Of a stretch of DNA of 64,000 nucleotides, positions 11,344-59,895 are shown piece after piece (position 1 is the stretch's first letter; each line of letters opens with the position of its first letter). The notes beneath the pieces were generated by a model. It was not told where the DNA came from. It did not search any database and saw only the letters and a program-made list of their open reading frames with translations. Made by a program: the position numbers and the translations under genes. The stretch comes from a plasmid: the sequence record NZ_CP022047.2. One strand, given 5' to 3'.

Positions 11344-11456
11344 CTCTTTCCCCCATAAAAAAACACGAGATAAATATATCTCGTGGCTTAAATATTGTTA
11401 TAATGGAAAAGTCGGTTACTCACTCCGTGCGTTTTCAACATGGAGGAGGTGAAACT

Positions 11457-11552
11457 ATGTGCACTATTATTTTTGTATCATTAATCGCTCCTATAATAAC
11501 AGGAGTAATTATTGCGTTATTTACACATTGGCTGAATAATCGCAAAAAGTAA
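11457..11552 (+). CDS. Type I toxin peptide, Fst/PepA1 (SprA1)-like, copy A
   Basis: 31-aa ORF MCTIIFVSLIAPIITGVIIALFTHWLNNRKK. It resembles S. aureus PepA1 ('IAPVISGCAIAFFSYWLSRRNTK') and pAD1 Fst. It has the SD 'ggaggaggtg' and a bidirectional terminator downstream. Confidence 0.7.
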   Translation: MCTIIFVSLIAPIITGVIIALFTHWLNNRKK

Positions 11553-11700: not shown

Positions 11701-11768
11701 CAAAACTTGTTATAATAGAAAAGTCGGTTACTCACTCCGTGCGTTTTCAACATGGAGGAGGTGAGAAC

Positions 11769-11864
11769 ATGTTCATAACCATATTCGTATCATTAATCGC
11801 TCCTATAATAACAGGAGTAATCATTGCGATATTCACACATTGGCTGAATAATCGTAAGAAGTAA
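11769..11864 (+). CDS. Type I toxin peptide, Fst/PepA1-like, copy B (tandem duplicate)
   Basis: 31-aa ORF MFITIFVSLIAPIITGVIIAIFTHWLNNRKK. The ~310-bp unit is duplicated, including promoter, SD and terminator. Confidence 0.7.
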   Translation: MFITIFVSLIAPIITGVIIAIFTHWLNNRKK

Positions 11865-14886: not shown

Positions 14887-16194
14887 CTAAATCCCCCTGT
14901 TCGCTTCTTGATATTTGGTTTGTTCAATTTTGCGTTCTAATTGTTCATGTTGAATTTCAGCTTGATATGTTTCAGCTTGATTATCGAGTGCACGATTTAA
15001 GCGATACATATCACGCTTAGTCACCATTTGTTTTTTGTAAGGATAGAATGTCTTATTTGTTTTAGGATCCTTAAAATATTTTGATGGGACATCTTTCTTT
15101 TGAATGTCTCGAACTTTGTCATCATCAATACGCTTAAGTTCTTTTAATAATTTATTCCCCATACGCATATTGATTTCTTTTTCTTTATGACTCTGATATT
15201 GATCGGCTTTAGAATTTTCTCCATATGCTTCTCGGTAAAAATCAGTCGTCTCTTTTACGGATTTATGATAATCTTCATACAATGCGTGATGATGATTTTT
15301 CATATATTCATTTGTGTAACGATCAATCAATGGTTGAAGATGTTTCACATTTTTATGATTATATTGCCACTTATGTTTTTCTTCAGGTAATCTTCTCACA
15401 AGTTGGATCAGTGCGACCTGTTCTTTAGCCGTCGCTTTTGTGACACCTACTTTTTCATAAAGCTCATTACGGTGTTCAGTTACTTTTTCTAAATATTTTT
15501 GGTTATCAAGTAACTGATTAGCGAATGCGGATTTCATATTAGATAACGTCGCTTCAGATCGTGAACCTTTAACTTCACCTTGATACCATTCACTCTTTAT
15601 ATACGCTCTTGTATTTTCTAACTCCGTTGTAGAAATGTGTATATGAATATTATCTGTATCATAATGAATATTCCCAACCCATCTTGTATTTTCAGGTATG
15701 AGTGCTTCATCTTTTATTAATTGTGTCATCATTTTACGTGTCGCATTTTTGATGACTGCTTCATTTAATGTATCGGTTTTAGAATCATATAAACCATGTT
15801 TTTCTAAAAAGTCATTATCAAACGAAATGATATCTTGATAATTAACAGAACCATTTTTTTCAGCTTGATCAAAATCTTGTTTCAACTTTTTAAAATCTTC
15901 AGCGTTTATGTGATCATTTAGTTCATTAAATGATCCCGTTGTACGTTTAATAATTTCTTTTTGGTTTTGATTGTCTTTCTTTCTTAAATGATTGTTGTTC
16001 ATATAATCTAAAACATAACGACTAAATCGAACTTCATGTTTGTCTGTTTGTCTGTTTGAATGAGTTGATTTTATATGTTCAAGATGTTGAGTGGTTTTAT
16101 CGTCTTCATGTTTTGATTTTTCATCATTAATATAATCGAGATACCCTGAAAATTGACTCGTTGAAAATTGTGATTTTAAAATTATGCCTGCCAT
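14887..16194 (-). CDS. Conjugative relaxase, MOB_P family
   Basis: Motif I 'FSGYLDYINDEK' with a catalytic Tyr. Motif III 'IHYDTDNIHIHIS', the HxDxDxxHxH histidine triad as in RP4 TraI. Confidence 0.75.
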   Translation of the reverse strand: MAGIILKSQFSTSQFSGYLDYINDEKSKHEDDKTTQHLEHIKSTHSNRQTDKHEVRFSRYVLDYMNNNHLRKKDNQNQKEIIKRTTGSFNELNDHINAEDFKKLKQDFDQAEKNGSVNYQDIISFDNDFLEKHGLYDSKTDTLNEAVIKNATRKMMTQLIKDEALIPENTRWVGNIHYDTDNIHIHISTTELENTRAYIKSEWYQGEVKGSRSEATLSNMKSAFANQLLDNQKYLEKVTEHRNELYEKVGVTKATAKEQVALIQLVRRLPEEKHKWQYNHKNVKHLQPLIDRYTNEYMKNHHHALYEDYHKSVKETTDFYREAYGENSKADQYQSHKEKEINMRMGNKLLKELKRIDDDKVRDIQKKDVPSKYFKDPKTNKTFYPYKKQMVTKRDMYRLNRALDNQAETYQAEIQHEQLERKIEQTKYQEANRGI

Positions 16195-24199: not shown

Positions 24200-24295
24200 A
24201 TGTTAGAAATATTCGTTCAAATTTCAACTACTATTGTAAGTGGTTGTGCCGTTACGTTGTTCGCACATTGGCTACGAAAACGTAATGAGAAATAA
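24200..24295 (+). CDS. Type I toxin peptide, Fst/PepA1-like, third locus
   Basis: 31-aa ORF MLEIFVQISTTIVSGCAVTLFAHWLRKRNEK with SD 'gaggaggtg'. A 5' palindrome 'TGTCAATTGACA' lies upstream. Terminator 'aaaaaaCCCCTCACTAtgccagTAGTGAGGGGttt' downstream. Confidence 0.65.
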   Translation: MLEIFVQISTTIVSGCAVTLFAHWLRKRNEK

Positions 24296-25368: not shown

Positions 25369-27896
25369 CGATGATATTTCCCTTGATTTTTTTGTAGTTT
25401 CACACGCTCGACAGAAGTCATATTGCGTGCACGATCCACACGTGATGGTTTCACTTGTGACGACTTTATTTGTGATGGTTGTACGTTTTCTCTGTGCACA
25501 TGTTGTTCATTCACAATTTCTTTTTCTTTAATAATCTGCTGAGTCGGTTGTGCTGATCCTTTAGGCATTGTGACAGGTTTGCCTTGTTTAGTTGAATACG
25601 TCTCGTTTTTGCGATTAATGACTCGTTTTGTTTCTTTAGTTTGCTTGTGAGGCGCTTTTGATTGTGGTGACTTCACTGATTGTTGGTTACCACTTTGTTT
25701 ATGTCCAGAATTCGTACTTGTTGCCTTTGTTGTCGTACTTGTTTGACCTTGTTTAATCTGTGAACGTCCACTAGAGACACCTTGTTGAACAGATGCTTTT
25801 TGTACACTATCATCTTTACTATCTTTATGTGCTGTGGTATCTTCCGCTGTTGTCGGTATATTCTCTATTTCATCATGTGTAACAACACCATTATCGTCTT
25901 TTGATTTTACATTAGACGTATCAAGTGTTGTCGCATTTCTGTCATGGTCATTATGTGCTACTTTTTGTTCATGTTCATTTTGTTGAACATGTTGTATACC
26001 CTCTTGATCCGTTTGTTCATTGTCTAATTGTTGATGTGTGCCATCCTGATTTGAATGTACAACACCTTCATCATGACTCGTATCATTTGAGCTTTCTGGT
26101 ACATCTACATGTTCTGGTGTGTCATCTGATGTTGAAACTGTTTCATTAGAAACACCTTCTTGTGAGTCCTCAACTTCATCAGTCGTCGTTGTTGTATCAA
26201 CATCAACGGATTGACTGCCTTGACCACCTTTTGTGTGTTGTTGTGAACTCACATTATCTGATTCGCCTACGACCACCTGTTGCGCATTCGTTTCTTGATT
26301 AACATGAGCTTGTGCTTCTGTTTCTGCACCATAGGAAGTATCAACTGATCCCTCTTGGTCATCTAAAGTTGGCGCTGTATAAGTTTCATGTGGTTTCATA
26401 TTTAAATCTTTCTCCATTTGACTAATCGTGCCTGTACCTAAATCATTTGCGACACCTTTCGCACGACTTTGTTCAAAACTATCTTTTGCGTAGCCACCTA
26501 ATGTACCAACACCACCTTTTGCTTGATGTCCAATATTGCTCGCTAAATTCTTACCGCCTTGTGCGACTGCACTTGTTGCTTTCGTTGCACCAGTCATATG
26601 TGCCATTTTAGAACCTGCTTTCATCGCAACAGCACCACCTGCAATACCTGCCATCAATGATTTCTGTCCATCTTTAACACCTGTATCGATACCTAATATT
26701 TTCTTCGCTTCATTAGGACCATCTACAACCGCAATCGCAAGTCCTATATAACAAATGACTTTTGCCAAGAATGAAAGATCTGATTGGAATATCGCACCTG
26801 TTAAAATCATAAACATTTTAAAAATAATCAATACCAAACCAATAACCGCATAGTTTGTAACGATATTTGAAAGCAGTTGTTTCACACGTTGAAGGGTGTT
26901 TAAATCCGCCGCAGCTACCCACGGTGCGATCACTTTTTGAAAGGCAATTTCAAACGATAATCGAACGACTTTAAATGATGTAAAGACTTGTACCGCGATT
27001 AACGTCCCTAATAATAACCATGTGAAAAAGAAGCTCGTCTGATAACGTTGATAGTAATTACTAAAAGGTGCGGAAGATTGTTTAAAGAAACCTTTCCCAA
27101 AGCCGTCACTGATTTTAGATAACTCATTCGATTTACCATCACTGCTCGTGACAAGGTTATTGTTAAATACATAATACTTATATTTTTCTGAATTACTATC
27201 ACTTGCTTTTTTTAATTTTGCGATATTTTCATAATATCGATATCCCTCTTCTTTTGCTTTTTTATCATCAACATTAGGATTTATCTTTTCTCCAAATTGA
27301 CGACGTCCACTCGTAAATGAGCCATCCGTTAAATCATTGTTGATGCCATTTTTAGCCTTTTTAAAATCATTTTGGGCAAGCCAATATAAATCGGTTGTAT
27401 TCATGGCGACGATTTGTGTCGATAAATACTTCATGTCTTTACCCTCAATGAGGTTGCCATCGCCACCATTAATTGATTTCCCGACTTCTGTTACACCTTG
27501 TGAAAATTTATAAGCACTTGAGAAAATAGTCGGTAATGCGATGATGAAACAAATCGCAAGCACTGAATTTACCGCAATTTGGGCGAGTTTTGTTTGTTGT
27601 TTCCCAAACATCATCGATAAACCAATGATTAAAATGGTTAATCCAAAAACTGCCCATACAATTGGCATCATCGTTTCACTTAAATTCGTAATGGCTTTAT
27701 TGTTTAATAAACCACCGAAAGTCACAATTTCATTGAGTAATTTTTCCATCGAAACGCTGATTTTATATAAACCCTTCGTAAAGTACCAACCCATGGACTT
27801 ACAAATATGCACAAGCCAATCAATACCATCATATGATTTAAAAATTTCTTGATTATCTTTAAGGATTTCAATCGCCTTTTTTTTTGATTCACTCAC
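25365..27896 (-). CDS. VirB6-like polytopic membrane protein with a long Ser/Thr/Gln-rich C-terminal extension
   Basis: About six TM helices in the N-terminal 450 aa. Low-complexity hydrophilic tail of ~400 aa. Confidence 0.55.
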   Translation of the reverse strand: MSESKKKAIEILKDNQEIFKSYDGIDWLVHICKSMGWYFTKGLYKISVSMEKLLNEIVTFGGLLNNKAITNLSETMMPIVWAVFGLTILIIGLSMMFGKQQTKLAQIAVNSVLAICFIIALPTIFSSAYKFSQGVTEVGKSINGGDGNLIEGKDMKYLSTQIVAMNTTDLYWLAQNDFKKAKNGINNDLTDGSFTSGRRQFGEKINPNVDDKKAKEEGYRYYENIAKLKKASDSNSEKYKYYVFNNNLVTSSDGKSNELSKISDGFGKGFFKQSSAPFSNYYQRYQTSFFFTWLLLGTLIAVQVFTSFKVVRLSFEIAFQKVIAPWVAAADLNTLQRVKQLLSNIVTNYAVIGLVLIIFKMFMILTGAIFQSDLSFLAKVICYIGLAIAVVDGPNEAKKILGIDTGVKDGQKSLMAGIAGGAVAMKAGSKMAHMTGATKATSAVAQGGKNLASNIGHQAKGGVGTLGGYAKDSFEQSRAKGVANDLGTGTISQMEKDLNMKPHETYTAPTLDDQEGSVDTSYGAETEAQAHVNQETNAQQVVVGESDNVSSQQHTKGGQGSQSVDVDTTTTTDEVEDSQEGVSNETVSTSDDTPEHVDVPESSNDTSHDEGVVHSNQDGTHQQLDNEQTDQEGIQHVQQNEHEQKVAHNDHDRNATTLDTSNVKSKDDNGVVTHDEIENIPTTAEDTTAHKDSKDDSVQKASVQQGVSSGRSQIKQGQTSTTTKATSTNSGHKQSGNQQSVKSPQSKAPHKQTKETKRVINRKNETYSTKQGKPVTMPKGSAQPTQQIIKEKEIVNEQHVHRENVQPSQIKSSQVKPSRVDRARNMTSVERVKLQKNQGKYHR

Positions 27897-30416
27897 TTAT
27901 ATATTCACTCCTTTATTAAGATTTGCGATAATATTTTTATCTAGCTTATTTTGTAGTAGCTCTAAATCAACTTCTAAAGCCGAATCATCACTAAACGTTT
28001 CAATATATAGTGCTAATTCTGTCTGTAACGCTTCAACACTTTGTACACTCTTACAAGTTGTACGTAATGAAAATTCATAATCCACATCATATACATCATG
28101 AAACGCCTCAGAAAATAACCGACAAATCAATGTGATATACATATCTTCTATGTGAAATGAGGTTAATTCGCCTTTATCTGTTTCTGATATATGTTTAGGT
28201 TCTTCTGTCATTAAGTCATCTAACGTTTCCGTGAGTCGTTGTTGCTTCTGTTTTTCTTCTTTATCAAACACAAATGTTATATCTTTTAAGTCATAGTATT
28301 TATGGTCTGATAAATCTTCGATTTCTGCATATCTACTCGGATCAATAGAACGATCAAGAAATTCCCATCTAAACGGCATACCTGTTTCGCCTTGATTGAA
28401 AATAGGATAAGCTCTAATACGCTCTCTTTTTAAGTTTTGACGCTTTGTCGAACGTATCACCACTGTATGTGTTTCATGAATCATGAGTAAATCTTGCGGT
28501 AAAATCAATTCTTGCTTTTCAGATGAATACGTATGACTAACTTTTGTTGAATCATCAGATATATTTTTCTGTTTCTTTGTTTTTGTAAAATAACCACACT
28601 TTTTACTAAATTCATCAGCTGTATCAGGATCTGTTGATAAAATATATACATGATTTTGGAAATTTGATTTAATGGTTGTGCCATCATCTTGTCCATACTT
28701 CCCAAATATTTGTGAATAAGCTTGAACGTAAGCCTCAAATAAAATTCTTCGACCTGCACATACAGTCAATATTTGATTAAAATCCACTATTGCTGGTAAA
28801 TTCCCAAATTCATCGAGTCGGAATTTCACAAAGTTATGACATTTACCGTCAGGTACAACGTTACGATTCGATGTCATTTCCGCAAGCAATGTATAAGTTT
28901 GAGAAATAAATAATGTCGCAAGTACATTTCTTGAACTATCATAATCCGGTACAACAAGAAAAAGTGCGATGGGTTTATTTGAATATGATCCCTGAATAAA
29001 AAGAGGCTCAACATCATGACTTGATTGATCTCTCAAGTAATGAAATTGAACCATTTCGTCTTGTGTATTCACTTGTTTATCTTCTTCTGGCAATATCATT
29101 TGATAGACCATATGTTGTTTGACATTATCGGAATCTTCTATTTCAAAATGAATTTTAACATCGTCTCCTAAAACATCTTCATAAACAATCTCAGTATAAC
29201 TAAAGGCATTCAGTTCGAATTTTTGAGATTTTGTTTTTATACTTTCACCTTGTTCATTTGTATGTTCAAAATAGTAATAACCTTTCTGAAATCGAAATAT
29301 CGGTTTAAATCGTACATCAATAATTTTCTTAAATCCAAATCGCCTTGTATCTAACGTGTTTTGAGATGTCATTTTTGCGACATCTTGTTCCATGAATATT
29401 TGTAGTTTGCCGGAGGCAACCGTAAATATACTACTTCTAGTATTGCCTGTCGCAAAGTTAGACTGTGCGTAAGCATTTTTCGCAATATGATCATCTGGTA
29501 ATTTTTTGAAATATTGATCTAACTTATTCACTTCTACACCATCAACTATAGTTGTTTCTCCTCCAAGCTTAGACAACATTAAAGCGACGTTATACATGGT
29601 GAACTTCTCGAATTCTTGGTCTCTATGTGTTTTCTCTAAAAGCGCCAAAATAATCGCTTTAATTAAGTTTGCCGCTGAACTATTCCAAAAGGGGTCTTTC
29701 GCACCCGGATCATAATATATCTGATTGGTTAATGTCCCCGCGTACTTTTCAGCTTTACTCTCGTTTCCTAATAAATACATACGTTTAATGAGCTCTAAAG
29801 GATTGACCGCAATAGACTTTTCAGGATTCATGATATTAAAAGGTAAAACACGATAACCTCTATCAACCAATGTTTCATATGACCCATTTAATAATTCTTC
29901 TTTCGGGTCTCCAATGACGAGACTTGCCCTCTCTTCAGCGCGTGAATCAATATCAATAGCGACTGTTACAGCACTCTCACCTTTACCTGATCGACTCGTT
30001 CCAATAATACATGTATTATGTGTTTCCGTATCAATAAAGTACTGGTCTTTGTAATGTGATATTGGGAACCCCGCAATACCTTCATATGTGTCATCACTAT
30101 GTGGTATCGCTTTATATTGAGATTTAATTTCATCTAATGTTGCCCATCTTGAATCACCTTGTTCACCATAATCCATTGGGCGATTCTTCCGATACAATTT
30201 ATATATTTTGTAAAAAGAAAAAGGAACAATCACGGGTAATGTTAACAGAGAAAAGCCAATATATGAGAAGTCCAACCAATTAGGTATGTGTAACATTTCT
30301 TCGACCGTTATATCAAACAGACTCATAATCCCATCATTTCTCGCGGGATTTTCATATCCCTCTTTAATATGCATAATGACAGATATAATACCATTTAAAA
30401 ATAAAAATAGAGACAA
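27897..30416 (-). CDS. Type IV coupling protein (VirD4/TcpA-like ATPase)
   Basis: N-terminal TM helices. Walker A 'IIGTSRSGKGESAV'. 839-aa size. Confidence 0.75.
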   Translation of the reverse strand: MSLFLFLNGIISVIMHIKEGYENPARNDGIMSLFDITVEEMLHIPNWLDFSYIGFSLLTLPVIVPFSFYKIYKLYRKNRPMDYGEQGDSRWATLDEIKSQYKAIPHSDDTYEGIAGFPISHYKDQYFIDTETHNTCIIGTSRSGKGESAVTVAIDIDSRAEERASLVIGDPKEELLNGSYETLVDRGYRVLPFNIMNPEKSIAVNPLELIKRMYLLGNESKAEKYAGTLTNQIYYDPGAKDPFWNSSAANLIKAIILALLEKTHRDQEFEKFTMYNVALMLSKLGGETTIVDGVEVNKLDQYFKKLPDDHIAKNAYAQSNFATGNTRSSIFTVASGKLQIFMEQDVAKMTSQNTLDTRRFGFKKIIDVRFKPIFRFQKGYYYFEHTNEQGESIKTKSQKFELNAFSYTEIVYEDVLGDDVKIHFEIEDSDNVKQHMVYQMILPEEDKQVNTQDEMVQFHYLRDQSSHDVEPLFIQGSYSNKPIALFLVVPDYDSSRNVLATLFISQTYTLLAEMTSNRNVVPDGKCHNFVKFRLDEFGNLPAIVDFNQILTVCAGRRILFEAYVQAYSQIFGKYGQDDGTTIKSNFQNHVYILSTDPDTADEFSKKCGYFTKTKKQKNISDDSTKVSHTYSSEKQELILPQDLLMIHETHTVVIRSTKRQNLKRERIRAYPIFNQGETGMPFRWEFLDRSIDPSRYAEIEDLSDHKYYDLKDITFVFDKEEKQKQQRLTETLDDLMTEEPKHISETDKGELTSFHIEDMYITLICRLFSEAFHDVYDVDYEFSLRTTCKSVQSVEALQTELALYIETFSDDSALEVDLELLQNKLDKNIIANLNKGVNI

Positions 30417-31576: not shown

Positions 31577-33790
31577 TTATTTTTGGGCACCATTTATTAT
31601 TTCTTTCTGTGCCTCTGCTTCTTTTTGCGCTTTTTGATAAGTATTGAATGCTTCTCTCTCTTTGATTTTATTATCAAGCGATTCTGACTCAAGGTCAATA
31701 TTTAATTGTTTGGCTTCTTTAACTTTATTTTCATCAATCATATATTCGCCAATCGTTGCTAAATCACGATTTTTTAAATTTAATTGACCTTTATATTTTT
31801 CATACGTTTTAATAATGTTGTCGGCATCATGAGTAAGTAATGCCTGATACATATATGTTTTTGGATCATCGAATGTTTCTATAACAACATCTAAGCCATC
31901 AGAATCTTGATTTTTATAAGCCGTATCTGATATAGATTTATACTTATTTGGATATTCATTCATCGCTGTTTGATATTGTCTATTTTTTAACAATTCATTA
32001 AATGTTGGTTTTTCTGGTTCTTCTTCAGCCACCATTTTGCCTGTCATGTTTACTGTAAAAATAATTATCGCAACCATGATGCTCAGTAATAGCCCACCTA
32101 ATATTAATGATGTCCAAATAGACTTCGATGAAGTTGGTTTAGTATTAATATATTGTGGTGATTGTAATAATTGCTCTGTTTTCATTAATTCTTTTTGAAC
32201 GGAAATCTCTTCTTCTTTTAAACTATTGAGCTTTTTCTTTTCTTCAAGCTTTTGAAGTTCGATTTCTTGTGCCTTTTTCTTTGTTTCAAGTTCAAGTTGG
32301 GATTTCTTCTCTTTTTCAATCTCCAATTGATCAGCCTTTTCTTTGGCTTTTGCTTCTTGACGTCTTGTTTCTTCTATATGATGTTGTTCTTGTTTTAATT
32401 GTTGTTCATATTTTAATTTTTCAGCTTCAGCATGCAATTTATCTCGATAGGCTTGTTCCTCACGCAACACTTCCTGTTTAAAACCTTCTATTTTAGCTTT
32501 TAAGAGTTGGAACGTTTCTTTATCGTAATCATACATTTTTGTTTTAAGATGTTCTTCTTGTGTTCGAATTAAATTTTGTAAATTTGTTTTTATTTCGCTG
32601 TCTAATCTTTTTTGTTCATTAGTAATATCATCAGATATGATTAATTCATGATTATCTATCATATTAGACAAATGGTCACTCACCTCTTGTTCATAAGCTT
32701 GATCTAAATCCTTAAGTTTATGTTCAAGTTCTTGATTTAACATACTGACTTTTTCTTGATACTTTAAATCCAACTCTTCTTTATAACGTCTCAAGATTTC
32801 TAAATTTTTAGCTTCTTCATTTTCAATAAACGCTTGTCTACGTTCTTCAATTTCAACACGTTTTTCTTCTTCAGATTCATTTAAAGCTTCATCTGACATC
32901 ATTAATGAAGATTGGAACTGGCTTAATTTTAATTCACTATCCTCTTTTAACTCGAGATACTTCAACATTAACTGTTGTTCTAAATCAAAGTAATATGTTT
33001 CTTTGAGCTGTTCTTTTTCTAATTGTCGATCATGTATGAAATCATATTTCTTTTGTAAGATAGGATCTTTCGAATGTCGCTTTTTAACTTCATGATGTGT
33101 ATATTTTGGAATTAAAACAGGTATAATATCTTTAACATGGCGTTTTGAAATGTCTAATTCTTTAGAATTAGATACGTTACTTTCTGAAGATTCCTCTAAA
33201 GGTTTCGTATTTTCTAAGATTTCAACAATTCGATTGAGTTTTTCTTGTCCTTCCTGATTAATTTCAAATGATTGTGATTCTATTGCTTTAGGTTCTTCTG
33301 TTAGTTCTTCCTTTGGTTCTTCTAATGTCTTATTAAGAACTTCTTCTTTTTTCTTTAATAAATGTTTCTTCGACTTAACCTCCGGTTCATATTGATAAGC
33401 TTCCTCGTAATCTTGTTTAAAGTCTTCTATATTGTCTTTTGTCACATCCGGATCCTGTGATATATCTCTCGTGACAATCGCAAACAATAAACTGTTTTCT
33501 ACTTTGGCTAATTCATCAAATTCATCTGTTTGAACATGCTTTGATTCTTGATGATTCAGTTTAACATCATCACTTTCCCACCTTGATACAAATGTTTCAT
33601 CATCCAAAATACTCATTTCTAAAATAAAATCTATGGTTTCTTGTTTCTTATCATAATAATCTCTACTCTCCTCAACTAACATATTTAATAGTCGGTCAAT
33701 TTCTTTTAATGGATATGCTTTTCTTAATTTATATCCAAGCTTTTTGACCAATTTAGGATCATTACTTTTTTTGATTTGTCCTTTTAACAA
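31577..33790 (-). CDS. Large coiled-coil protein with a single TM segment
   Basis: Extensive E/K/Q-rich heptad-like regions. TM helix 'IWTSLILGGLLLSIMVAIIIFTV' near residue 545. Confidence 0.3.
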   Translation of the reverse strand: MLKGQIKKSNDPKLVKKLGYKLRKAYPLKEIDRLLNMLVEESRDYYDKKQETIDFILEMSILDDETFVSRWESDDVKLNHQESKHVQTDEFDELAKVENSLLFAIVTRDISQDPDVTKDNIEDFKQDYEEAYQYEPEVKSKKHLLKKKEEVLNKTLEEPKEELTEEPKAIESQSFEINQEGQEKLNRIVEILENTKPLEESSESNVSNSKELDISKRHVKDIIPVLIPKYTHHEVKKRHSKDPILQKKYDFIHDRQLEKEQLKETYYFDLEQQLMLKYLELKEDSELKLSQFQSSLMMSDEALNESEEEKRVEIEERRQAFIENEEAKNLEILRRYKEELDLKYQEKVSMLNQELEHKLKDLDQAYEQEVSDHLSNMIDNHELIISDDITNEQKRLDSEIKTNLQNLIRTQEEHLKTKMYDYDKETFQLLKAKIEGFKQEVLREEQAYRDKLHAEAEKLKYEQQLKQEQHHIEETRRQEAKAKEKADQLEIEKEKKSQLELETKKKAQEIELQKLEEKKKLNSLKEEEISVQKELMKTEQLLQSPQYINTKPTSSKSIWTSLILGGLLLSIMVAIIIFTVNMTGKMVAEEEPEKPTFNELLKNRQYQTAMNEYPNKYKSISDTAYKNQDSDGLDVVIETFDDPKTYMYQALLTHDADNIIKTYEKYKGQLNLKNRDLATIGEYMIDENKVKEAKQLNIDLESESLDNKIKEREAFNTYQKAQKEAEAQKEIINGAQK

Positions 33791-39883: not shown

Positions 39884-40413
39884 TCCTTTTTTGTATTTGG
39901 GGAAATTTTTTTATATTTTATTTTTCAATGTTCTATGATCAATAAAAAAGACAAATAAAAGAAGGCAACTTTCACTCTGTTATAGTGAAAGTTGCCCTCG
40001 AAAAGTCCGTAACAACAATATTGTACACGAAACTACTACCCTCTCATTCTATTAGGATAGCTTGTTAATTAATTCCAATTCAAACAGTTATTCCTACTCA
40101 AATTATATGATTTCTCCCTGAAATTCACATTAGTAAGATTGAATTAATTATTTATGTGTACTATATTTAGATATGTGCTTGTATTAAGGTTGTTAGCGCA
40201 ACCTCATACAAGTCACATATGTTACGGGGAAAGTCAATTCACTAGTAGTGTAGTGGTATTGATGAAATAGAAAGAGTGTGTTGACGCACGCTCTTTTTAT
40301 TCCCCTTTTTTATTGATCACAGAGCATTGTACACTCTGAAACCTTATAAATTAATTAAATATGAAAACTGGACATTAGTCAACTAATAATGAAAAGAAAA
40401 TAATTAATATTAA

Positions 40414-41175: not shown

Positions 41176-42690
41176 TCAACTCGAATCAACCTCTATCCTC
41201 TTCCGGTAAAATGCCTCTAATTGTAAGTCTTCTGTGATAATCTGAATGGTTGTATCAATGAATGTACTAGTTTTTGATGATACGCGATGTTTTTTAAACA
41301 CACGATTCAATTTCATTTTCAAATGTGCCGTTGATCTAATACGTTTACCTCTTACTTTTTTCATTGCTTCTTGAATCATTGTTTTTCGTGTTGCTAAATA
41401 CATCACCGCATTTTTCCCTTTAGTTGTATGGCTGTAGAACGTTTGGACGTCTTTTAATAAGGCTTTAAGTGTCGATTTTGACATTCCTAGAGCCTTACAT
41501 AATTCTGTTCTTGTTGTTTTCACAATGCCATTACGCGCATTTTTTTGTATGTATTGATATAAATCTTGTTTCCATTCTGAATAATGAACACGTTGTCTTT
41601 GTTCTCTTGATTTACGATGTTTTCTAAAGAATAATGAATCAACTTTGATACTATGCTTTTCGCACCATGTATATAAAAGCGTCATAATATGCTTTTTTGA
41701 AGCCCCTTTATAACGTCCTGAATAAGCACTATTAACCTTTTCTTCAACCTGTTTGTCATCTAAAGGTCGTTTTAGTTTTTGATTCCATTGATTCATAACA
41801 GCCAAAGCTTCTGACTTATCCATGTTACTCGCATACATATGAAGTGCCATTGTAAAAACAGCATTATCTCTCGCAATAATTCCGTTTCCTTCACCTGCAA
41901 TGTCTGTAGCATTGTATAAGTGATGGAACCATGGCTCATGAATGGATTTTAATTGTTTAAATTGTACTGTTTTAGGTTCATTATACTTATCCTTAAGGGT
42001 TGTTAGTTCAAAGTTCATTGAAAAATCAATCATTGTTTGAAAGTCATAGATATGTTCGTCATTGAAATAGACAACGTTATCATGCCTAGGTACACGGAAG
42101 AAACCGAAATGATTACAATTGATATCAATGCCTTCAATCACTTCGGCATAGTATGTTCTTAAGTTCATTGAAACACGTTTTGCGCGATCTAACCCTAAAT
42201 TAAACGCTTTTTTACCTATATTTTTCATAAAAATAGGCGATTTTAAGTAGAACATAACATGGTAGCCATTTGGGGTATCCATAATGAGCGTTGGTTTAAT
42301 ACCTATGTCGTGTCCTCTCGCAATAATATCTTCTATTGTCACGGTCGCTTTATCTACACCATCTATATCAATCGCAAATACATTTATTTGTTTTAAATTT
42401 GTTTCCAAATGCCCAGCAAACTTACCTTCTTTTGTGTAGTACGCTGAACGAAACACATTTGGTGTCATGTGCGTAATATCATGTCTCATTTCATGAAATG
42501 TTTCAAACGAATCGATAATCTTACCTTCAGTTTTACTTAAATCTTCTTTTGTCTTTGTCACAATAACCTTACCATTTTTAAAAGTACATTTTTTTAAATT
42601 TTTATTATGCATATTATCATTTCTTGATAAACCATTATGTAACATACCATCAAAAATTGCTTGATCACGTGACTTTTTATTTTTAACCAT
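41176..42690 (-). CDS. Theta-replication initiator of the Inc18 RepR/RepE/RepS family (Prim-Pol-like N-terminal domain)
   Basis: 'HMTPNVFRS..YTKEG..NLKQINVFAIDIDG', 'NGYHVMFYL', 'NHFGFFRVPRHDNVVYF' and 'EQRQRVHYSEWKQDL' closely parallel conserved blocks of pIP501 RepR and pAMbeta1 RepE. Confidence 0.75.
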   Translation of the reverse strand: MVKNKKSRDQAIFDGMLHNGLSRNDNMHNKNLKKCTFKNGKVIVTKTKEDLSKTEGKIIDSFETFHEMRHDITHMTPNVFRSAYYTKEGKFAGHLETNLKQINVFAIDIDGVDKATVTIEDIIARGHDIGIKPTLIMDTPNGYHVMFYLKSPIFMKNIGKKAFNLGLDRAKRVSMNLRTYYAEVIEGIDINCNHFGFFRVPRHDNVVYFNDEHIYDFQTMIDFSMNFELTTLKDKYNEPKTVQFKQLKSIHEPWFHHLYNATDIAGEGNGIIARDNAVFTMALHMYASNMDKSEALAVMNQWNQKLKRPLDDKQVEEKVNSAYSGRYKGASKKHIMTLLYTWCEKHSIKVDSLFFRKHRKSREQRQRVHYSEWKQDLYQYIQKNARNGIVKTTRTELCKALGMSKSTLKALLKDVQTFYSHTTKGKNAVMYLATRKTMIQEAMKKVRGKRIRSTAHLKMKLNRVFKKHRVSSKTSTFIDTTIQIITEDLQLEAFYRKRIEVDSS

Positions 42691-43181: not shown

Positions 43182-43418
43182 CTATTCAAAATTTATATTT
43201 ATACCATTTTGATTTTCTATTAGATAGCTTATAATTTGTATATCTTCGAAATACTCTGCTTGTTCTATGTCTTCTTGAAATTTCATGTAGGTCGCTAAAG
43301 TCATTTCAGATGATTTTAATGACAATTCTGCTTTTACCATATCTTTCATTTTTTCTATTGAAGTACCTAACACCACAAAGCCATGTTCACTGATTGCGAA
43401 ATAAGACACTTTCATCAC
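43182..43418 (-). CDS. Small acidic hypothetical protein
   Basis: 78 aa. Last gene of a three-gene operon with overlapping stops and starts. Confidence 0.25.
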   Translation of the reverse strand: MMKVSYFAISEHGFVVLGTSIEKMKDMVKAELSLKSSEMTLATYMKFQEDIEQAEYFEDIQIISYLIENQNGININFE

Positions 43419-43716
43419 CCCATATTACGTATTCTAATACAATTTCTGCTAAATGTTTAGATTCTAAATACACATTATCATCGTACTCTAAACCAAAAAT
43501 ATTGAATGGTTCCACTATCGGAACTCGATTGATGATTGTATTTTGAATATGATTATGTTGTACTTTGTTTGAATTATTTATAATAAAGTATTCATCCATC
43601 TTTATACCCCAAATATATTTTTCTTCTACTTTAACGACCCTAAAAATACCAATCTTATTTTCACCTATCAACATATCTACAATATGTCCTTTTTCTATGG
43701 GTAACATCATAGCCAA
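43387..43716 (-). CDS. Hypothetical protein
   Basis: 109-aa ORF overlapping its neighbours. Confidence 0.25.
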   Translation of the reverse strand: MAMMLPIEKGHIVDMLIGENKIGIFRVVKVEEKYIWGIKMDEYFIINNSNKVQHNHIQNTIINRVPIVEPFNIFGLEYDDNVYLESKHLAEIVLEYVIWGDESVLFRNQ

Positions 43717-43892
43717 TCACTCCCCTCTAAGATATCAAAAATTGTGAGCTGTTTTTGTTGAAAATATTCTATCTGGACAATTTTATAGTTTACATTCATT
43801 ATGTTTGGTTCATTATTCTGAACCAACCTTTCATCAAACCCTTTTAGATGATATACAGTCCATTCTGTTAACTCTTCAATTATATTAGACAT
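43707..43892 (-). CDS. Small hypothetical protein (starts 'MSNI', within duplicated module copy 1)
   Basis: 61 aa. The start codon and SD 'AAAGGAGA' are part of the duplicated ~450-bp module. Confidence 0.3.
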   Translation of the reverse strand: MSNIIEELTEWTVYHLKGFDERLVQNNEPNIMNVNYKIVQIEYFQQKQLTIFDILEGSDWL

Positions 43893-44342
43893 CTTTACCG
43901 TCTCCTTTTTTAGAAATGATTTTGATTCACTTCTATATTGAATTGTGTTTTGTTAGTGAAAAGTCAGTTGATTTATTTCGAAGACAAGGGCGACTTTGTC
44001 GCAACGTTTACCCTTGTCTTTGAATGGTCGATCACAACCATTTATGGTTGATGATCCGACTTAATTAACTACATTTGAACGTCCAAAACACCAATATAGA
44101 TGTGAAAATGATTTTTAGAGGCGGTTTCCATATGCGTCTGCTTATGCAGACAAAAATACCGGTCAAAAGGGCTACCCTTTTGACCGGTATCAAGAGATTT
44201 GTTATAATATAGTTGTAAAAAAAGAGAACATGCGCGAACATGTTCTCTCCGTAGACCCGTTAAAAAGACGGTGACTTAAGTTAAAAAGATAAAAATAACC
44301 TTTTCGAACCTGTCAAAGTTGGAAGGTTATTTTTTTTGGTCG
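43884..44342. repeat. Duplicated ~450-bp module, copy 1 (structured leader plus sRNA plus toxin 3' end)
   Basis: Near-identical to 45095-45545 over the first ~380 bp. The last ~80 bp diverges but stays alignable. Confidence 0.8.
44216..44340 (+). ncRNA. Candidate antitoxin sRNA (SR4/RatA/SprF-like antisense), copy 1
   Basis: Consensus sigma-A promoter TTGACC-17-TATAAT with extended TG (44179-44209). 5' stem-loop 'AGAGAACATGcgcgaaCATGTTCTCT'. Terminator 'ATAACCTT...AAGGTTATtttttttt' overlaps the toxin ORF 3' end on the opposite strand. Confidence 0.5.
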
Positions 44343-44407
44343 TTGTTACTAATTATTACTAAGCCAATGATTGTTAATACAATCATGAGCATTTCATAAT
44401 CAGACAT
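44327..44407 (-). CDS. Type I toxin peptide, BsrG/TxpA/SprG-like, copy 1
   Basis: 26-aa ORF MSDYEMLMIVLTIIGLVIISNNDQKK with SD 'AAAGGA'. Its N-terminus parallels B. subtilis TxpA 'MSTYESLMVMI' and BsrG 'MTVYESLMIMI'. Its C-terminus parallels SprG 'LIGLVI'. Confidence 0.55.
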   Translation of the reverse strand: MSDYEMLMIVLTIIGLVIISNNDQKK

Positions 44408-44533
44408 GCTATTCCTTTCTAGGAGTAGAAACCAAAATCATAGGCATCACCCCATTTTCATGAGATTAGCCACCATCTATCCAACTTGTCTACTAAACTA
44501 TTCTAACACATCACCTCCTTTTCATCATTTGAA

Positions 44534-45103
44534 TTAAAGTATTTTGATTCTTGGGTCTAAAACACCCGTTATCGTATCATCATTAATATACGATACATAC
44601 TTTCTCGTTAATTCTTCATCAGACAATTGTATCCCTTCAAACTCAAAAAGCGCCTGTAAAACTTCTTTGTTTGAACATTGATTCAAGATATCTATTAACA
44701 GTCTAACATGTTCTCTTTGGTTCAAATAATTTGTGAGCCCTTCCTCATTAATCAAATTAATAATATTAGAACTGTCTTCTTCATCACATTCCAATTCGTA
44801 CATTTTGATATTGAAATATTCTCTATCAAAATATGTATTCAATATATCCAATGTTGGTCGAATATCATAGATATTCATGCCATTTTGATACAATGCATTT
44901 AATCCTGATAACAATACAATATCTTCTACGAAGTCCCTATAGTCGCTTTCTGAAATAGCCTCTCTTATCGCTTCGAATTGTTCCATATAGAACTCTGGAA
45001 ACTCGTCTTCTTCATATATACCAATTATATCTTTAGCCATAATCGGTGCATATTTTGAATTTGTTTGTTCCTTACAAAATACATAAAGTTTAATGTTAGA
45101 CAT
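44534..45103 (-). CDS. Highly acidic hypothetical protein (starts 'MSNI', within duplicated module copy 2)
   Basis: 189 aa, D/E/F/Y-rich. A candidate DNA-mimic or immunity-type protein. No recognisable motif. Confidence 0.3.
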   Translation of the reverse strand: MSNIKLYVFCKEQTNSKYAPIMAKDIIGIYEEDEFPEFYMEQFEAIREAISESDYRDFVEDIVLLSGLNALYQNGMNIYDIRPTLDILNTYFDREYFNIKMYELECDEEDSSNIINLINEEGLTNYLNQREHVRLLIDILNQCSNKEVLQALFEFEGIQLSDEELTRKYVSYINDDTITGVLDPRIKIL

Positions 45104-45545
45104 CTTTACCGTCTCCTTTTTTAGAAATGATTTTGATTCACTTCTATATTGAATTGTGTTTTGTTAGTGAAAAGTCAGTTGATTTATTTCGAAGACAAGG
45201 GCGACTTTGTCGCAACGTTTACCCTTGTCTTTGAATGGTCGATCACAACCATTTATGGTTGATGATCCGACTTAATTAACTACATTTGAACGTCCAAAAC
45301 ACCAATATAGATGTGAAAATGATTTTTAGAGGCGGTTTCCATATGCGTCTGCTTATACAGACAATAATACCGGTCAAAAGGGCTACCCTTTTGACCGGTA
45401 TTAAGAAATTTGTTATAATATGGTTGTAAAAAAAGAACATGCGCGAACATGTTCTCTCCGTAGACCCGTTAAAAAGACGTTATCTTTTATGATTTGATAA
45501 AATAACCATTAACCGTCTAGAGTTGGATGGTTATTTTTTTGGCTA
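45095..45545. repeat. Duplicated ~450-bp module, copy 2
   Basis: Direct repeat of 43884-44342. It has a compensatory change in the terminator stem (CCTT/AAGG to CCAT/ATGG). Confidence 0.8.
45426..45540 (+). ncRNA. Candidate antitoxin sRNA, copy 2
   Basis: Same TTGACC-17-TATAAT promoter (45391-45419), 5' stem-loop and terminator 'ATAACCAT...ATGGTTATttttttt'. Confidence 0.45.
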
Positions 45546-45548
45546 ATA

Positions 45549-45638
45549 TTAATGATTGCGATAACTAAGTCCAATAAGTGTCAGTATGAATATACCGAAG
45601 CTCATCATCATTTGTATCGAAACTTCTATTGAAACCAA
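45549..45638 (-). CDS. Type I toxin peptide, diverged paralogue, copy 2
   Basis: ORF (M)VSIEVSIQMMMSFGIFILTLIGLSYRNH from a TTG start with SD 'AAGGAGA', or 20 aa from the ATG. It shares the 'LT(I/L)IGL' core with copy 1. Its 3' end overlaps the sRNA terminator. Confidence 0.4.
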   Translation of the reverse strand: MVSIEVSIQMMMSFGIFILTLIGLSYRNH

Positions 45639-46113
45639 AAGGCGTCTCCTTTCTATTGGTTTAATTGTCATTGGATCTAAACCTTTTTCAATACAAGACA
45701 CCGAAGCAAAAAACTTTTAAGATCAATACATAATATATTTCTTTCTGTACAAATATGGTAATCATACATGATAAACACCAAACCCCTTACTACGCCACAT
45801 AGAAAAGGAGTTTGGTGTTTATCTATGAACTATTACTTTTATAAGCACATTATGACACATATGACATGGTATGTCATATGTAGCCATCTAAAAATAAATA
45901 TATTAATTATATTCTTTTACTTTAAATGTAAAAAAAATAAATACTTCTAATAATTTAAATATTTCACCATTCAAATCCTCAATTACCGCATTTACAACTT
46001 CAATAGATGTATTTCCTAATGATAATGCTTCATAATTCTTATGAAGCATTATACTTTCTTAAATAATCAATAACTTCTTTAATTGAATCTACTGTTAAAG
46101 GAAAGTGAGAAAT

Positions 46114-47031
46114 TTACAGTGATAAAACATACATTAAAATAGGTAATGTTATGATACATAGTATCGAAGACATAACCACATATTGAGAAGTTTCAGGACC
46201 TTTATCAGAATATATCGTTGCTAATGATGTATTAGTGGCACCAGCAGGCATCCCTCCAGAAAGCACCATAACACCTAAAATAACTTTATCTGTTATAAAC
46301 GTATTTAAAATTAAAAACACAAGCCCAGGTATCATGATAAGACGTACAAAACAAAAAATATAGATATTTTTAGAGGCCATGAATTTCTTAATATTGATAA
46401 ATCCAAACAAAGCACCTGTAATAATCATAGATAGAGGAGCAGTCATACTCCCTAATTCATCTAGAGCAGCAGTTAATGTTTTAGGTAATGAAACACCTAA
46501 TATCAATAATAAGATGCCTAGAAAAGAAGCTAAAAGTGCAGGGCTTAATAGTGTTGTACCTATATATTTAAAATTAACATCATTTTTATATAATCTTATA
46601 CCTAATGTAAATAAAAATAAATTAGATATTGTATTGTAAATGACAAGTATAAATAAGCCTTTTTCATCATATAGTGTACCTATAATAGGAATACCTATAA
46701 ATAGTATATTTGAGTATGTGCAACAACCAATCCATACCTTTTTTAAGGTTAATTCCATCTTAGTAAATGAAACAAGCAACTTAGAAAGAAGGAAAGGGAA
46801 AGCTACTAAAAATAAGCTGATACAAATGATCGTAACATAGAAATTTAAATTATAAGCAGTTATATTAACGTTAAAGCTAGTTAATATAGCTGCTGGTAAT
46901 ACAATATTAGTTAATAGATTTGATAAACTGCTGATATGTTTTTTGTGAATCCAATTTTTTCTGCTACATAGAAAACCAATAATGAGGAATATTAGTAGTA
47001 TTAAACATTGATCTATAACTGTAGTTATCAT
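46114..47031 (-). CDS. AEC-family (auxin efflux carrier/malate permease-like) membrane transporter
   Basis: 305 aa. About 8-10 TM helices with the typical AEC N-terminal helix pattern. Confidence 0.55.
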   Translation of the reverse strand: MITTVIDQCLILLIFLIIGFLCSRKNWIHKKHISSLSNLLTNIVLPAAILTSFNVNITAYNLNFYVTIICISLFLVAFPFLLSKLLVSFTKMELTLKKVWIGCCTYSNILFIGIPIIGTLYDEKGLFILVIYNTISNLFLFTLGIRLYKNDVNFKYIGTTLLSPALLASFLGILLLILGVSLPKTLTAALDELGSMTAPLSMIITGALFGFINIKKFMASKNIYIFCFVRLIMIPGLVFLILNTFITDKVILGVMVLSGGMPAGATNTSLATIYSDKGPETSQYVVMSSILCIITLPILMYVLSL

Positions 47032-51745: not shown

Positions 51746-51951
51746 TAAACAATTTCAAAGTTATTATTATTTAAGTTATTATACTTAGTAGGCTGGAGAT
51801 CCTTCACACCATTAAAGAGAAAATCTCCACTTAGGAAATGATAAATAACGGTAAATAATCTGAGATTAATTGATTTCTACTGCTTTTAAGTATATCACTT
51901 AATTATTTCTATTACTTGGGTTGATTTTCTTCTAAATATAGCATCTTAACT

Positions 51952-51979
51952 AATCACATGTTACATGTAACATGTGATT
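51952..51979. promoter_or_regulatory. Perfect 28-bp palindrome upstream of RepA_N rep (operator or centromere-like site)
   Basis: 'AATCACATGTTACATGTAACATGTGATT'. Further 'ttacatgtgatt' half-sites lie at 51989-52000. Confidence 0.5.
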
Positions 51980-52250
51980 AGTTATTTGTTACATGTGATT
52001 TATATAATGTTACATTATTTGTTGTGTATTTAAGTTGAATTTGTTACTCTAAAAATAGAAAAAACATTTAGTTGTTGGTAGCAACTAAATGTTTTGTAAA
52101 GGTAATAAAACGTTCGCACATAATTTGAACTTATTTAATATATAAATTATAACTCGTAAATGGATGACTATCAACTATGTAGTTTAAAATTTCAATTGAA
52201 AACGTTTTATTATCTCAATCCAATTTTAGATATGGAGAGAGGCTATACTT

Positions 52251-57467: not shown

Positions 57468-57533
57468 TTAATTATTATAACAGAAACATGTGACATGTTA
57501 CTTGTAACATGTCACATGTTTCTGTTATAATTA
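57468..57533. promoter_or_regulatory. ~66-bp near-perfect palindrome immediately upstream of the second parA (operator or centromere-like site)
   Basis: 'aattattataaCAGAAACATGTGACATGTTACttGTAACATGTCACATGTTTCTGttataattact'. Confidence 0.5.
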
Positions 57534-59731: not shown

Positions 59732-59842
59732 ATATTACTCAAAATATATGGAAATACATTTTATACTTACTAAGAAGTAGTCTAAATTTTAAAAATTATA
59801 TAAGTAATTTCATATCTATCTGTACTTAGCAGATAGATATTT

Positions 59843-59895
59843 TTATACAAATCACATGTAACAAGTTACTTGTTACATGTGATTTGTATAAAAAG
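59843..59895. promoter_or_regulatory. ~53-bp near-perfect palindrome upstream of the aquaporin gene
   Basis: 'tttttatacaaATCACATGTAACAAGTtACTTGTTACATGTGATttgtataaaaa'. Related to the palindromes at 51952 and 57468. Confidence 0.45.

Follow-up and report, generated by a model that had tools for sequence, protein, structure and literature searches.

To our knowledge, the EGeRS1 repeats of the pLS20 plasmid family are the only described elements of their kind, and promoters proven to act on single-stranded DNA (ssDNA) come only from enterobacterial plasmids; Frpo-type ssDNA promoters were reportedly worked on by Masai and Arai in 1997. Here, we describe a locus on a large Mammaliicoccus sciuri plasmid (NZ_CP022047.2), most of which is covered by the 64,000-nt stretch that was analysed (hereafter, the window). 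At this locus a long hairpin, present in two identical copies, is predicted to close the ribosome-binding sites (RBS) of two unrelated sets of small acidic proteins (the cargo), and each copy is joined to a predicted type I toxin-antitoxin (TA) module.

In the report on the pLS20 family (Val-Calvo et al. 2021, PMC8708921), EGeRS1 is a near-identical, highly structured element of 420–750 bp found at five 'establishment' operons, including that of ardC. It lies directly upstream of the RBS, contains no constitutive promoter and blocks read-through; copy EGeRS1-B blocks expression from an upstream promoter in the native orientation only and has no promoter activity in the reverse orientation (PMC8708921). 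Frpo and ssi elements are ssDNA promoters of F and IncI1 plasmids (PMC9849209; PMC12672017; PMC11541004). On F, the type I TA system flmAB is flanked by Frpo1 and Frpo2, two direct repeats with 92% identity that are separated by about 5 kb, and flmAB has been proposed to protect the Frpo1–Frpo2 interval from recombinational loss (PMC9849209).

The M. sciuri locus shares several properties with EGeRS1. The plasmid is a MOB_L conjugative plasmid, and more than one structured, near-identical repeat stands directly upstream of the RBS of different small operons, the two copies here ending at the Shine-Dalgarno sequences (SD) of different operons. In both cases the repeats are located near the replication region, lack an evident sigma-A promoter, have a GC-content above the plasmid average and block upstream transcription, which here is a prediction. 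The differences concern length (229–300 nt versus 420–750 bp), GC-content (35–37% versus ~50%), architecture (a single long hairpin versus a four-branched structure), the fusion to TA modules, and the orientation of the operons, which is that of the relaxase gene here and the opposite in pLS20. Comparison of the hairpin with pLS20 (NC_015148.1) by local blastn and nhmmer gave only chance matches and no identity to EGeRS1 above 60%. The hairpin gate is a new, sequence-unrelated variant of the pLS20-type regulatory repeats of establishment genes. The elements of the gate and the genes behind it are as follows (window coordinates).

44155..44191, minus strand: palindromic intrinsic terminator, copy 1, with a perfect 17-bp stem and a T-run at 44154–44150 (terminator scan)
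44137..44152: 6-bp stem-loop, GTCTGC-TTAT-GCAGAC, separating the terminator from the long hairpin (fold)
43897..44125: long imperfect hairpin, copy 1, 229 nt (fold)
43911..43939, plus strand: candidate ssDNA promoter TAGAAA-17-TATATT, 9/12 matches, on the gene-proximal arm and flanked by bulges
45365..45403, minus strand: palindromic terminator, copy 2, with an 18-bp stem (terminator scan)
45108..45336: second copy of the long hairpin, with 100% identity to the first and extending up to the SD of the 189-aa gene (alignment)
43182..43892, minus strand: cargo operon 1, acidic proteins with isoelectric points (pI) of 4.35–5.1 and no known domains
43892..43707, minus strand: first open reading frame (ORF) of cargo operon 1, MSNI..., 61 aa
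43716..43387, minus strand: second ORF of cargo operon 1, 107/109 aa
43418..43182, minus strand: third ORF of cargo operon 1, 75/78 aa
44534..45103, minus strand: cargo gene 2, MSNI..., 189 aa, pI 4.2, net charge −22, an ORFan

Over 300 nt, the segments 43882–44181 and 45093–45392 show 99% identity. Beyond them the copies remain 93% identical up to 44277/45486, and the antitoxin terminators are alike again at 44317–44336/45521–45540. An initial annotation of this DNA had claimed a near-identical repeat, and the alignment confirms it, with the weaker likeness extending to about 44336/45540. Common to both copies are the antitoxin promoter and 5′ half, the 17–18-bp palindromic terminator, the small hairpin and the 229-nt hairpin (100% identical), followed by the SD, the ATG and the first 3–4 codons (MSNI) of two unrelated cargo units; aligning the copies also recovered the annotated reach of the conserved block, as far as the SD and the initial codons of the MSNI genes. 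The toxins, the toxin 5′ untranslated regions (UTRs) and the antitoxin 3′ halves differ between copies, and the pair of direct repeats encloses TA module 1 together with the 189-aa gene. The TA module as a whole is not the duplicated unit. The earlier description of a tandemly duplicated TA module thus holds for the block repeat but not for the module, since each toxin is of a different subfamily and the antitoxins diverge in their 3′ halves. It is misleading because the near-identical part comprises the antitoxin 5′ half and ~290 bp that fall outside the TA module on other plasmids. Two long palindromes had also been proposed. The one over the antitoxin −35 element (44156–44190) is present, while the other is only the apex of the single 229-nt hairpin 43897–44125. 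The remark that the block may be a leader or operator of the MSNI genes is the most interesting part of that annotation and can now be made specific, as a terminator plus a 229-nt hairpin whose base is predicted to pair with the RBS.

The hairpin consists of one long stem with a forked tip, lies in a conserved block of ~300 nt and has a GC-content of 0.35–0.37, compared with 0.30 for the window. In copy 1, the basal pairs join 43897–43904, the complement of the SD GGAGACGG, to 44119–44126; at the stem base, ACCGTCTC (the SD complement) pairs with GAGGCGGT ~220 nt away. Three bulges (6, 4 and 4 nt) are all on the gene-proximal arm. Relative to shuffled sequence, the z-score of the fold was −8.2 as RNA (with flanks) and −11.2 as ssDNA. 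In a screen for ssDNA promoters, based on a published method (PMC12672017) and covering the 64-kb stretch in 1,274 segments of 300 nt folded with DNA parameters, the two hairpin loci ranked 1 and 2 (−66.6 and −65.8 kcal/mol; mean −21.7, standard deviation 7.9).

In RNA reading through from upstream, both the SD and the AUG are predicted to be paired, and the mean unpaired probability of the SD is 0.14, against 0.45 in an RNA started at ~44091. The promoter scan found no minus-strand promoter with at least 9/12 matches between 43893 and 44150, and an Rfam E-value scan of 43700–45900 gave nothing credible within 43893–44150. The palindromic terminator of copy 1 would end the toxin-1 transcript and insulate the hairpin and the genes downstream of it. 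This terminator is absent from the homologous TA module of the S. epidermidis plasmid that was aligned over the region. Because upstream transcription should be terminated, no usable sigma-A promoter is evident and the RBS is predicted to be closed in read-through RNA, the cargo genes are expected to be off in the double-stranded DNA (dsDNA) plasmid. The block is probably a cis-acting gate of the cargo genes, which would keep the acidic proteins off in the resident dsDNA plasmid and allow their expression in some special state. A zipper-type attenuator like cATT of pLS20 (PMC13401043) was considered and rejected, as there is no terminator-like site between the hairpin and the SD and the stem base is the SD itself. 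The same hairpin design was not found in the structured intergenic regions before small genes at 37.5–41.2 kb.

A search with the 107-aa cargo protein retrieved three relatives, referred to below as L004, L005 and L006. The L005 hairpin is identical at 227 of 229 positions (99.1%); in the same comparison, identity was 76% for the terminator, 92, 88 and 85% for the cargo genes, 86% for the next intergenic region and 97% for rep. Pairing of the terminator stem is kept in L005 through three fully compensatory pair changes. The L006 contig (89% overall) starts inside the hairpin, as a repeat would cause in assembly, and the last 44 nt of the hairpin match with one change. Among five full copies, all seven variable positions fall in the apical 115 nt (P ~0.008, with the boundary chosen post hoc), and no position varies in the basal 114 nt, which contain the bulges, the promoter-like site and the segments that pair at the SD. 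One substitution favours each strand and two repair wobble pairs, too few to choose between RNA and DNA as the folded form. The conservation shows that the hairpin is under strong constraint. The best sigma-A promoter for the MSNI genes that could be picked by eye, TTCACT-17-TATAGA (43960..43932), was discarded; the −10 does not end in the conserved T, and the −35 is variable at its first T (L004 and L005).

The hairpin block had no match in PLSDB, a collection that contains pLS20 (blastn, word size 11). When 185,579 species-representative genomes and the JGI metagenomes were scanned for exact 20-mers, and viral contigs for a 29-nt pattern, only chance matches of 20–27 nt were obtained, and nhmmer detected no homologue of the hairpin in the other plasmid loci compared. 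The plasmids with the nearest Rep relatives (46–58% identity) are without the element. In the collections searched, it is confined to this plasmid lineage.

The two strands of the hairpin differ in folding energy. Folding is more favourable for the plus strand, the template of the cargo genes, than for the mRNA sense, both with RNA parameters (−85.0 versus −66.1 kcal/mol) and with DNA parameters (−46.5 versus −40.0 kcal/mol); the plus-strand fold contains 84 Watson-Crick pairs, 6 G·T pairs and 0 A·C oppositions (two-sided binomial, ~0.03). A template-minus-sense difference as extreme as this one (−18.9 kcal/mol) occurred in 2 of 304 segments of the same gene train (mean +4.75). Since the mRNA sense usually folds better across these 304 background segments, the template bias is not an effect of composition. 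The template strand is also the better folding one in EGeRS1-A and EGeRS1-B (pLS20 43990–44559 and 45760–46360), by −36.3 and −39.4 kcal/mol (background mean +15.6, minimum −17.3). This asymmetry, which goes unmentioned in the available text of PMC8708921, fits poorly with the view taken there that the non-template strand is the one transferred.

A third family with this property was reached through the Rep relatives. Plasmid pLI0213a of Macrococcus bovicus (NZ_CP128469.1; Rep 46% identical, pLS20-like backbone) carries three GC-rich leader copies that are 86–87% identical (27611–27923, 32370–32765 and 33363–33757). Each consists of a terminator and a ~237-nt hairpin whose outer pairs join UUCUCC to the SD GGAGAA, and each continues past the start codon ATG of its own gene (radC, an ORF for an acidic 200-aa protein and an 84-aa ORF). 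Three compensatory pairs are present, the genes have the relaxase orientation, and the template preference is −27.2, −17.6 and −14.4 kcal/mol against a background of +3.8 (standard deviation 8.9). No description of this leader was found in a literature search. It resembles the M. sciuri block in the repeated combination of a terminator and an SD-pairing hairpin, in template bias and in the relaxase orientation of its genes. Its sequence is unrelated and GC-rich, its copies are 86–87% rather than 100% identical, and no TA module is fused to it. A template strand that folds better than the mRNA sense is common to three unrelated element families and could be used to search for more.

A promoter that is active only on ssDNA is one way in which the cargo genes might be switched on. 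The cargo genes are on the same strand as the MobL gene, so that, by inference from pLS20, the transferred strand would be their template. During conjugation, the plus strand would enter the recipient as ssDNA and serve as the template of the cargo genes. The hairpin would form on it and reconstitute the promoter TAGAAA-17-TATATT on the gene-proximal arm, from which RNA polymerase would run round the loop into the MSNI genes. The resulting RNA, with a start at ~44091, would be without the anti-SD segment and hence translatable, and expression would cease once the complementary strand is made. As a dsDNA site, TAGAAA-17-TATATT would point away from the cargo genes; the mirror site on the minus strand has a spacer of only 13 nt. 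TA module 1 would penalise recombinational loss of the interval between the repeats, as proposed for flmAB of F.

The parallels to Frpo and ssi include long ssDNA hairpins directly upstream of genes templated by the transferred strand (presumed, in our case), a pair of near-identical direct repeats that enclose a type I TA module and are separated by a few kb, and a position ahead of small acidic proteins or proteins of no known function. Frpo and ssi are inactive as dsDNA, and the present hairpins would resemble them in this respect. In contrast to these elements, the host is Gram-positive, the promoter boxes in the stem match at 9/12 positions and are not canonical, and the locus is not next to the origin of transfer (oriT) in the full plasmid. 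The block has no PLSDB match and accordingly no detected sequence similarity to Frpo/ssi elements.

We tentatively prefer a composite reading, with slightly less than even confidence, in which two TA modules are combined with gates of establishment genes, possibly ssDNA promoters. That an ssDNA promoter switches the cargo on during conjugation is possible but somewhat doubtful. A broader proposal, that these hairpins together with the pLI0213a repeats, and perhaps EGeRS1, are the Gram-positive equivalent of Frpo, is speculative and on balance unlikely; they would be promoters active on ssDNA only that give a burst of acidic, possibly anti-defence proteins on entry, with a TA module between the repeats as a recombination guard and the template bias as a signature. 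The locus nevertheless offers a smaller and simpler test object than EGeRS1, with one 229-nt hairpin in two identical copies, and it has the gene orientation that an ssDNA promoter needs and that pLS20 does not have, which makes the hypothesis directly testable.

A number of points speak against the ssDNA promoter or limit the case for conservation. Matches of at least 9/12 are at chance level in this AT-rich DNA (25 found versus 19.5 expected). The identification of the plus strand as the transferred strand is carried over from pLS20. In the full conjugative plasmid the locus is ~26 kb from the presumed oriT and so would not reach the recipient at the outset of transfer. In an RNA that starts internally, the RBS opens only in part (0.45). 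The authors of the EGeRS1 study reject an ssDNA promoter; in pLS20 it is the non-template strand that is transferred, and neither orientation yielded a promoter (PMC8708921). EGeRS1 shares the template bias all the same, and the bias therefore cannot reflect the transferred strand in all three families. As to conservation, few sequences are involved. L005 is the sole diverged full copy, L006 contributes 44 nt, and L004 is not independent because it represents the same plasmid lineage with a 22-kb block of the type IV secretion system (T4SS) deleted. With the midpoint of the hairpin as an a priori boundary, six of the seven variable sites are apical (P ~0.06).

The properties of the block could also be explained at the RNA level, by a leader that combines a translational lock with an insulator and has no role for ssDNA. 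The cargo genes would then be transcribed by read-through or from an activator-dependent promoter, and the RBS would be hidden until opened, for example by RNase III cleavage, a plasmid-encoded RNA-binding protein or temperature. Folding of the mRNA sense remains strong (hairpin −66 kcal/mol; z = −8.2 when flanks are included), and the predicted pairing of SD and AUG in read-through RNA, with the SD unpaired at a probability of 0.14, fits a lock. The Macrococcus analogue pairs UUCUCC with GGAGAA and shows compensatory changes, and EGeRS1-B blocks upstream-driven expression in its native orientation only (PMC8708921). Yet in six of six copies from three families the mRNA sense is the worse-folding strand, against the background trend, whereas an optimised riboregulator should show the opposite. 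Moreover, the very strong terminator directly upstream should leave little read-through RNA to be regulated, and near-total invariance, which includes loops and bulges, exceeds the needs of an RNA helix. We regard such a leader as rather unlikely to be the full explanation. The folding preference of the plus strand would be accommodated by a structured antisense RNA, which would be initiated at TAGAAA-17-TATATT, cover the apex and the distal arm, and repress all leader copies in trans, so that the cargo would be expressed briefly in a new host before the antisense RNA builds up. Both copies of the block contain the promoter-like site on the plus strand, a common regulator acting in trans would account for the identity of the copies within one plasmid, and the scheme is independent of which strand is transferred and could cover pLS20 too. 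It is improbable for several reasons. The promoter match is weak and at chance level, there is no good plus-strand terminator (the palindrome is followed by CAAGAGATTTG, not by a T-run), EGeRS1-B had no promoter activity in the reverse orientation (PMC8708921), and a promoter for the sense mRNA, of which none was found, would still be required.

The remaining explanations regard the position of the block at gene starts as incidental or the block itself as inert. Long strand-biased ssDNA hairpins, the most stable in the window, would be suitable priming sites (sso, single-strand origin, or ssi) for complementary-strand synthesis after transfer; Frpo elements serve both priming and transcription (PMC12672017), and the orientation dependence of SSO in conjugative mobilisation has been discussed (PMC5313138). 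There is, however, no similarity to anything in PLSDB, which should include plasmids with classical sso types. The block also extends precisely across the SD, the ATG and the initial 3–4 codons of two unrelated genes, and the Macrococcus element behaves likewise at three genes, which gives priming as the sole function little likelihood. A recent segmental duplication, a gene-conversion tract or a palindromic miniature inverted-repeat transposable element (MITE) would leave a block without any function of its own. The 100% identity of the two hairpins, as after recent duplication or conversion, and the narrow distribution within one plasmid lineage would fit. This origin is very improbable, since the L005 hairpin has 2 differences in 229 nt where adjacent DNA differs by 8–24% and ~20 would be expected at the flanking rate. 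In addition, there are two copies per plasmid in a fixed register (terminator on one side, RBS and ATG on the other), dispersed copies, terminal repeats and target duplications were not seen, and a sequence-unrelated element of the same layout exists in Macrococcus. A MITE was specifically rejected on account of the two copies per plasmid, always in the same register, and the lack of dispersed copies in the exact-word scans.

The cargo proteins gave nothing in Pfam, PHROGs, PDB sequences, tblastn against plasmids or a word search of 5.8 billion proteins. The 189-aa protein matched nothing but its own copy on an M. sciuri contig of 89.8 kb, and no relative emerged when 1.84 billion representatives were scanned in full with HMMER; its AlphaFold single-sequence model had a mean pLDDT (predicted local distance difference test) of 45.6 and was unusable. 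The earlier statement that neither this protein nor the small-gene operon has recognisable domains therefore survived the Pfam, PHROGs, PDB and HMMER searches. An anti-defence role of the cargo, such as the anti-restriction function suggested earlier, is a guess from context only. If the cargo proteins were anti-defence factors, they would be entirely new ones.

The second component of the locus is a pair of TA modules with the following predicted elements.

44180..44208, plus strand: promoter of antitoxin RNA 1, TTGACC-17-TATAAT with extended TG, 11/12 matches
44216..44338, plus strand: RatA-type antitoxin RNA 1, ~123 nt, with a 10-bp 5′ stem, a small hairpin and an intrinsic terminator (Rfam and fold)
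44150..44515, minus strand: toxin-1 mRNA, with the extended −10 TGTTAGAAT at 44508..44500 and a structured 5′ UTR (Rfam, ORF, terminator)
44407..44327, minus strand: toxin-1 ORF, 26 aa, MSDYEMLMIVLTIIGLVIISNNDQKK
45391..45541, plus strand: antitoxin 2, promoter at 45391–45419 and RatA-like RNA at ~45427–45541 (promoter scan, fold)
45549..45701, minus strand: toxin-2 ORF, ...PIERRRLLVSIEVSIQMMMSFGIFILTLIGLSYRNH, 50 aa, several in-frame starts, SprG1/PepG1-like

In each module, a minus-strand mRNA would encode a small hydrophobic peptide, and a strongly promoted, convergent plus-strand RNA of ~120 nt would pair with its 3′ part; at the level of sequence, the predicted toxin mRNA and the antisense RNA converge with overlapping 3′ ends. 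The initial annotation had called a type I TA system here, and the curated models bear this out (RatA 56 bits, rli28 107.7 bits, Hol_Tox 25.6 bits, PepG1 E = 3e-10). We are highly confident that two type I TA modules of the TxpA/BsrH/SprG-RatA/SprF kind are encoded. Most likely, they act as plasmid-addiction elements. Taken alone, the modules add little, being further members of a well-known family.

Module 1 matches the RatA family (Rfam RF01776) at 44205–44296 with 56.0 bits, above the gathering score of 49, and the full rli28 model (RF01492) at 44515–44337 with 107.7 bits (gathering score 45), in a region that contains the toxin-1 ORF. The toxin-1 3′ UTR is antisense to all of RatA-1. The 3′ end of the toxin-1 mRNA is probably at the palindromic terminator, and the −35 element of antitoxin 1 sits in the right arm of this terminator. 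The copy-1 peptide scored 14.8 bits against Pfam Hol_Tox (PF16935), under the gathering score of 23.3. A convergent rli28/RatA pair with a BsrH-like ORF inside rli28 is known from Listeria plasmids (PMC9484302). Compared with TxpA/RatA, BsrH and rli28/RatA systems (B. subtilis skin element; Listeria plasmids pLM80, pLM7802 and pLM5446), module 1 has the same two RNAs by covariance model, the same convergent layout, a small hydrophobic ORF within an rli28-type mRNA and a plasmid location, and it differs in that the antitoxin −35 is inside a 17–18-bp palindromic terminator and the module is fused to the hairpin gate. The TA core (44214–44508) was found at 83–91% identity on 33 staphylococcal plasmids in PLSDB; because their surroundings are unrelated, it is a portable module. 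A mini-ORF described as a perfect SD followed by ATG-TGT-TAG (44511..44503) had to be withdrawn, as it coincides with the extended −10 element TGTTAGAAT (44508..44500) of the toxin promoter and its SD and ATG are not conserved in homologues. In these homologues on other plasmids, TGTTAGAAT aligns with TGTTATAAT, and it also aligns with positions 8–16 of the Rfam rli28 model.

Antitoxin 2 scored 39.6 bits against RatA RF01776, under the gathering score of 49, and the Rfam scan of 43700–45900 gave no match of copy 2 to rli28 RF01492. Its 5′ half (70 nt) is 93% identical to copy 1, and the 3′ half differs. The copy-2 peptide reached 25.6 bits against Hol_Tox, above the gathering score, and E = 3.3e-10 with 39.4 bits against NCBIfam PepG1 (NF041589), under the equivalog cut-off of 70, which makes it a relative of PepG1/SprG1 rather than an equivalog. 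SprG and SprF pair through overlapping 3′ ends, each antitoxin being specific for its own toxin (PMC6393307), and this fits the shared 5′ and different 3′ halves of the two antitoxins here. Compared with SprG/SprF (PepG1) of S. aureus, the copy-2 peptide has the same ERRRL…FGIFILTLIGL pattern and several in-frame starts, and a cis-antisense RNA likewise covers the 3′ end, where SprF specificity resides (PMC6393307). Unlike SprF, the copy-2 antitoxin has a RatA-type 5′ half, and the module is plasmid-borne and not part of a pathogenicity island or the core genome. Just upstream of toxin 2 are a 19-bp hairpin (45770–45823) and a promoter-like ATGACA-17-CATAAT with TG (45849–45877, minus strand), and the region gave a weak partial match to RsaJ (24 bits, threshold 100). 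The segment 45770–45877 is probably the toxin-2 promoter and 5′ UTR.

Most structural details of the modules given earlier were reproduced. Plus-strand promoters TTGACC-17-TATAAT with upstream TG are present at 44180–44208 and 45391–45419 (11/12). The minus strand has the two small ORFs, one of 26 aa (44407..44327) and one of 50 aa that contains internal starts (45701..45549), and the stem of the antitoxin terminator shows the compensatory change (ACCTT/AAGGT versus ACCAT/ATGGT). Predicted folds agree with RNAs of ~120 nt that have a 5′ stem and a terminator, but only copy 1 has the 10-bp stem that had been given for both; the stem of copy 2 has 8 bp. The toxin ORF ends inside the antitoxin terminator, as claimed, in copy 1 only; the copy-2 stop codon (45551–45549) lies 9 nt past the T-run.

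At least three more ORFs for type I toxins of the Fst/PepA1 kind were noted at 11403..11552, 11739..11864 and 24200..24295 (plus strand), two ending in …IAPIITGVIIA[L/I]FTHWLNNRKK and one in …TIVSGCAVTLFAHWLRKRNEK. They are on the strand opposite to the conjugation genes, inside long structured intergenic regions, each of which contains repeated AACCCCTCACTA…TAGTGAGGGGTT hairpins (11577–11607, 11888–11918, 24323–24354 and 24532–24563). Homologous ORFs in the gene calls of L004 are labelled Fst_toxin. The plasmid would thus encode at least five type I TA modules.

The genes from ~45.7 kb down to position 9 form a train that is nearly all on the minus strand, with the TA/hairpin locus at its head, just upstream of rep. 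Two genes place the plasmid.

41176..42690, minus strand: PriCT_1 replication protein (Rep)
14887..16194, minus strand: MobL relaxase

The same train encodes an LPXTG adhesin, a VirD4-type coupling protein, a type IA topoisomerase and a DUF3991/Toprim primase, and the backbone is that of a pLS20-like (MobL) conjugative plasmid. Rep and its counterparts on Listeria plasmids (32–35% identity) are all members of the PriCT_1 family. This kinship with plasmids of a genus in which plasmid-borne rli28/RatA has been reported hints that the TA type travels with the replicon family. The presumed oriT region was taken as 17380–17713; the position of nic within it is not derivable from the sequence alone.

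The second M. sciuri contig, L004 (GCA_035794175.1), is the same plasmid at 96–98.6% identity with a ~22-kb T4SS block deleted (window 19058–41098), and it is a mobilisable derivative of the conjugative plasmid. The deletion brings rep and the hairpin/TA region to within ~4 kb of the presumed oriT.

Downstream of rep, a 530-nt intergenic region (39884–40413) precedes a gene for 116 aa and folds with −151.7 kcal/mol over 545 nt, with a long-range closing stem around an internal strong terminator. This region may be a leader or attenuator (cATT/conAn-like) of the conjugation operon, and similarly long gaps occur at the matching position on the Macrococcus plasmid. In the accessory part of the plasmid, three perfect palindromes at 51947–51984, 57474–57531 and 59840–59894 (arms of 19, 28 and 27 nt) have the common core GTAACATGTGA/TCACATGTTAC and look like operators for one common regulator.

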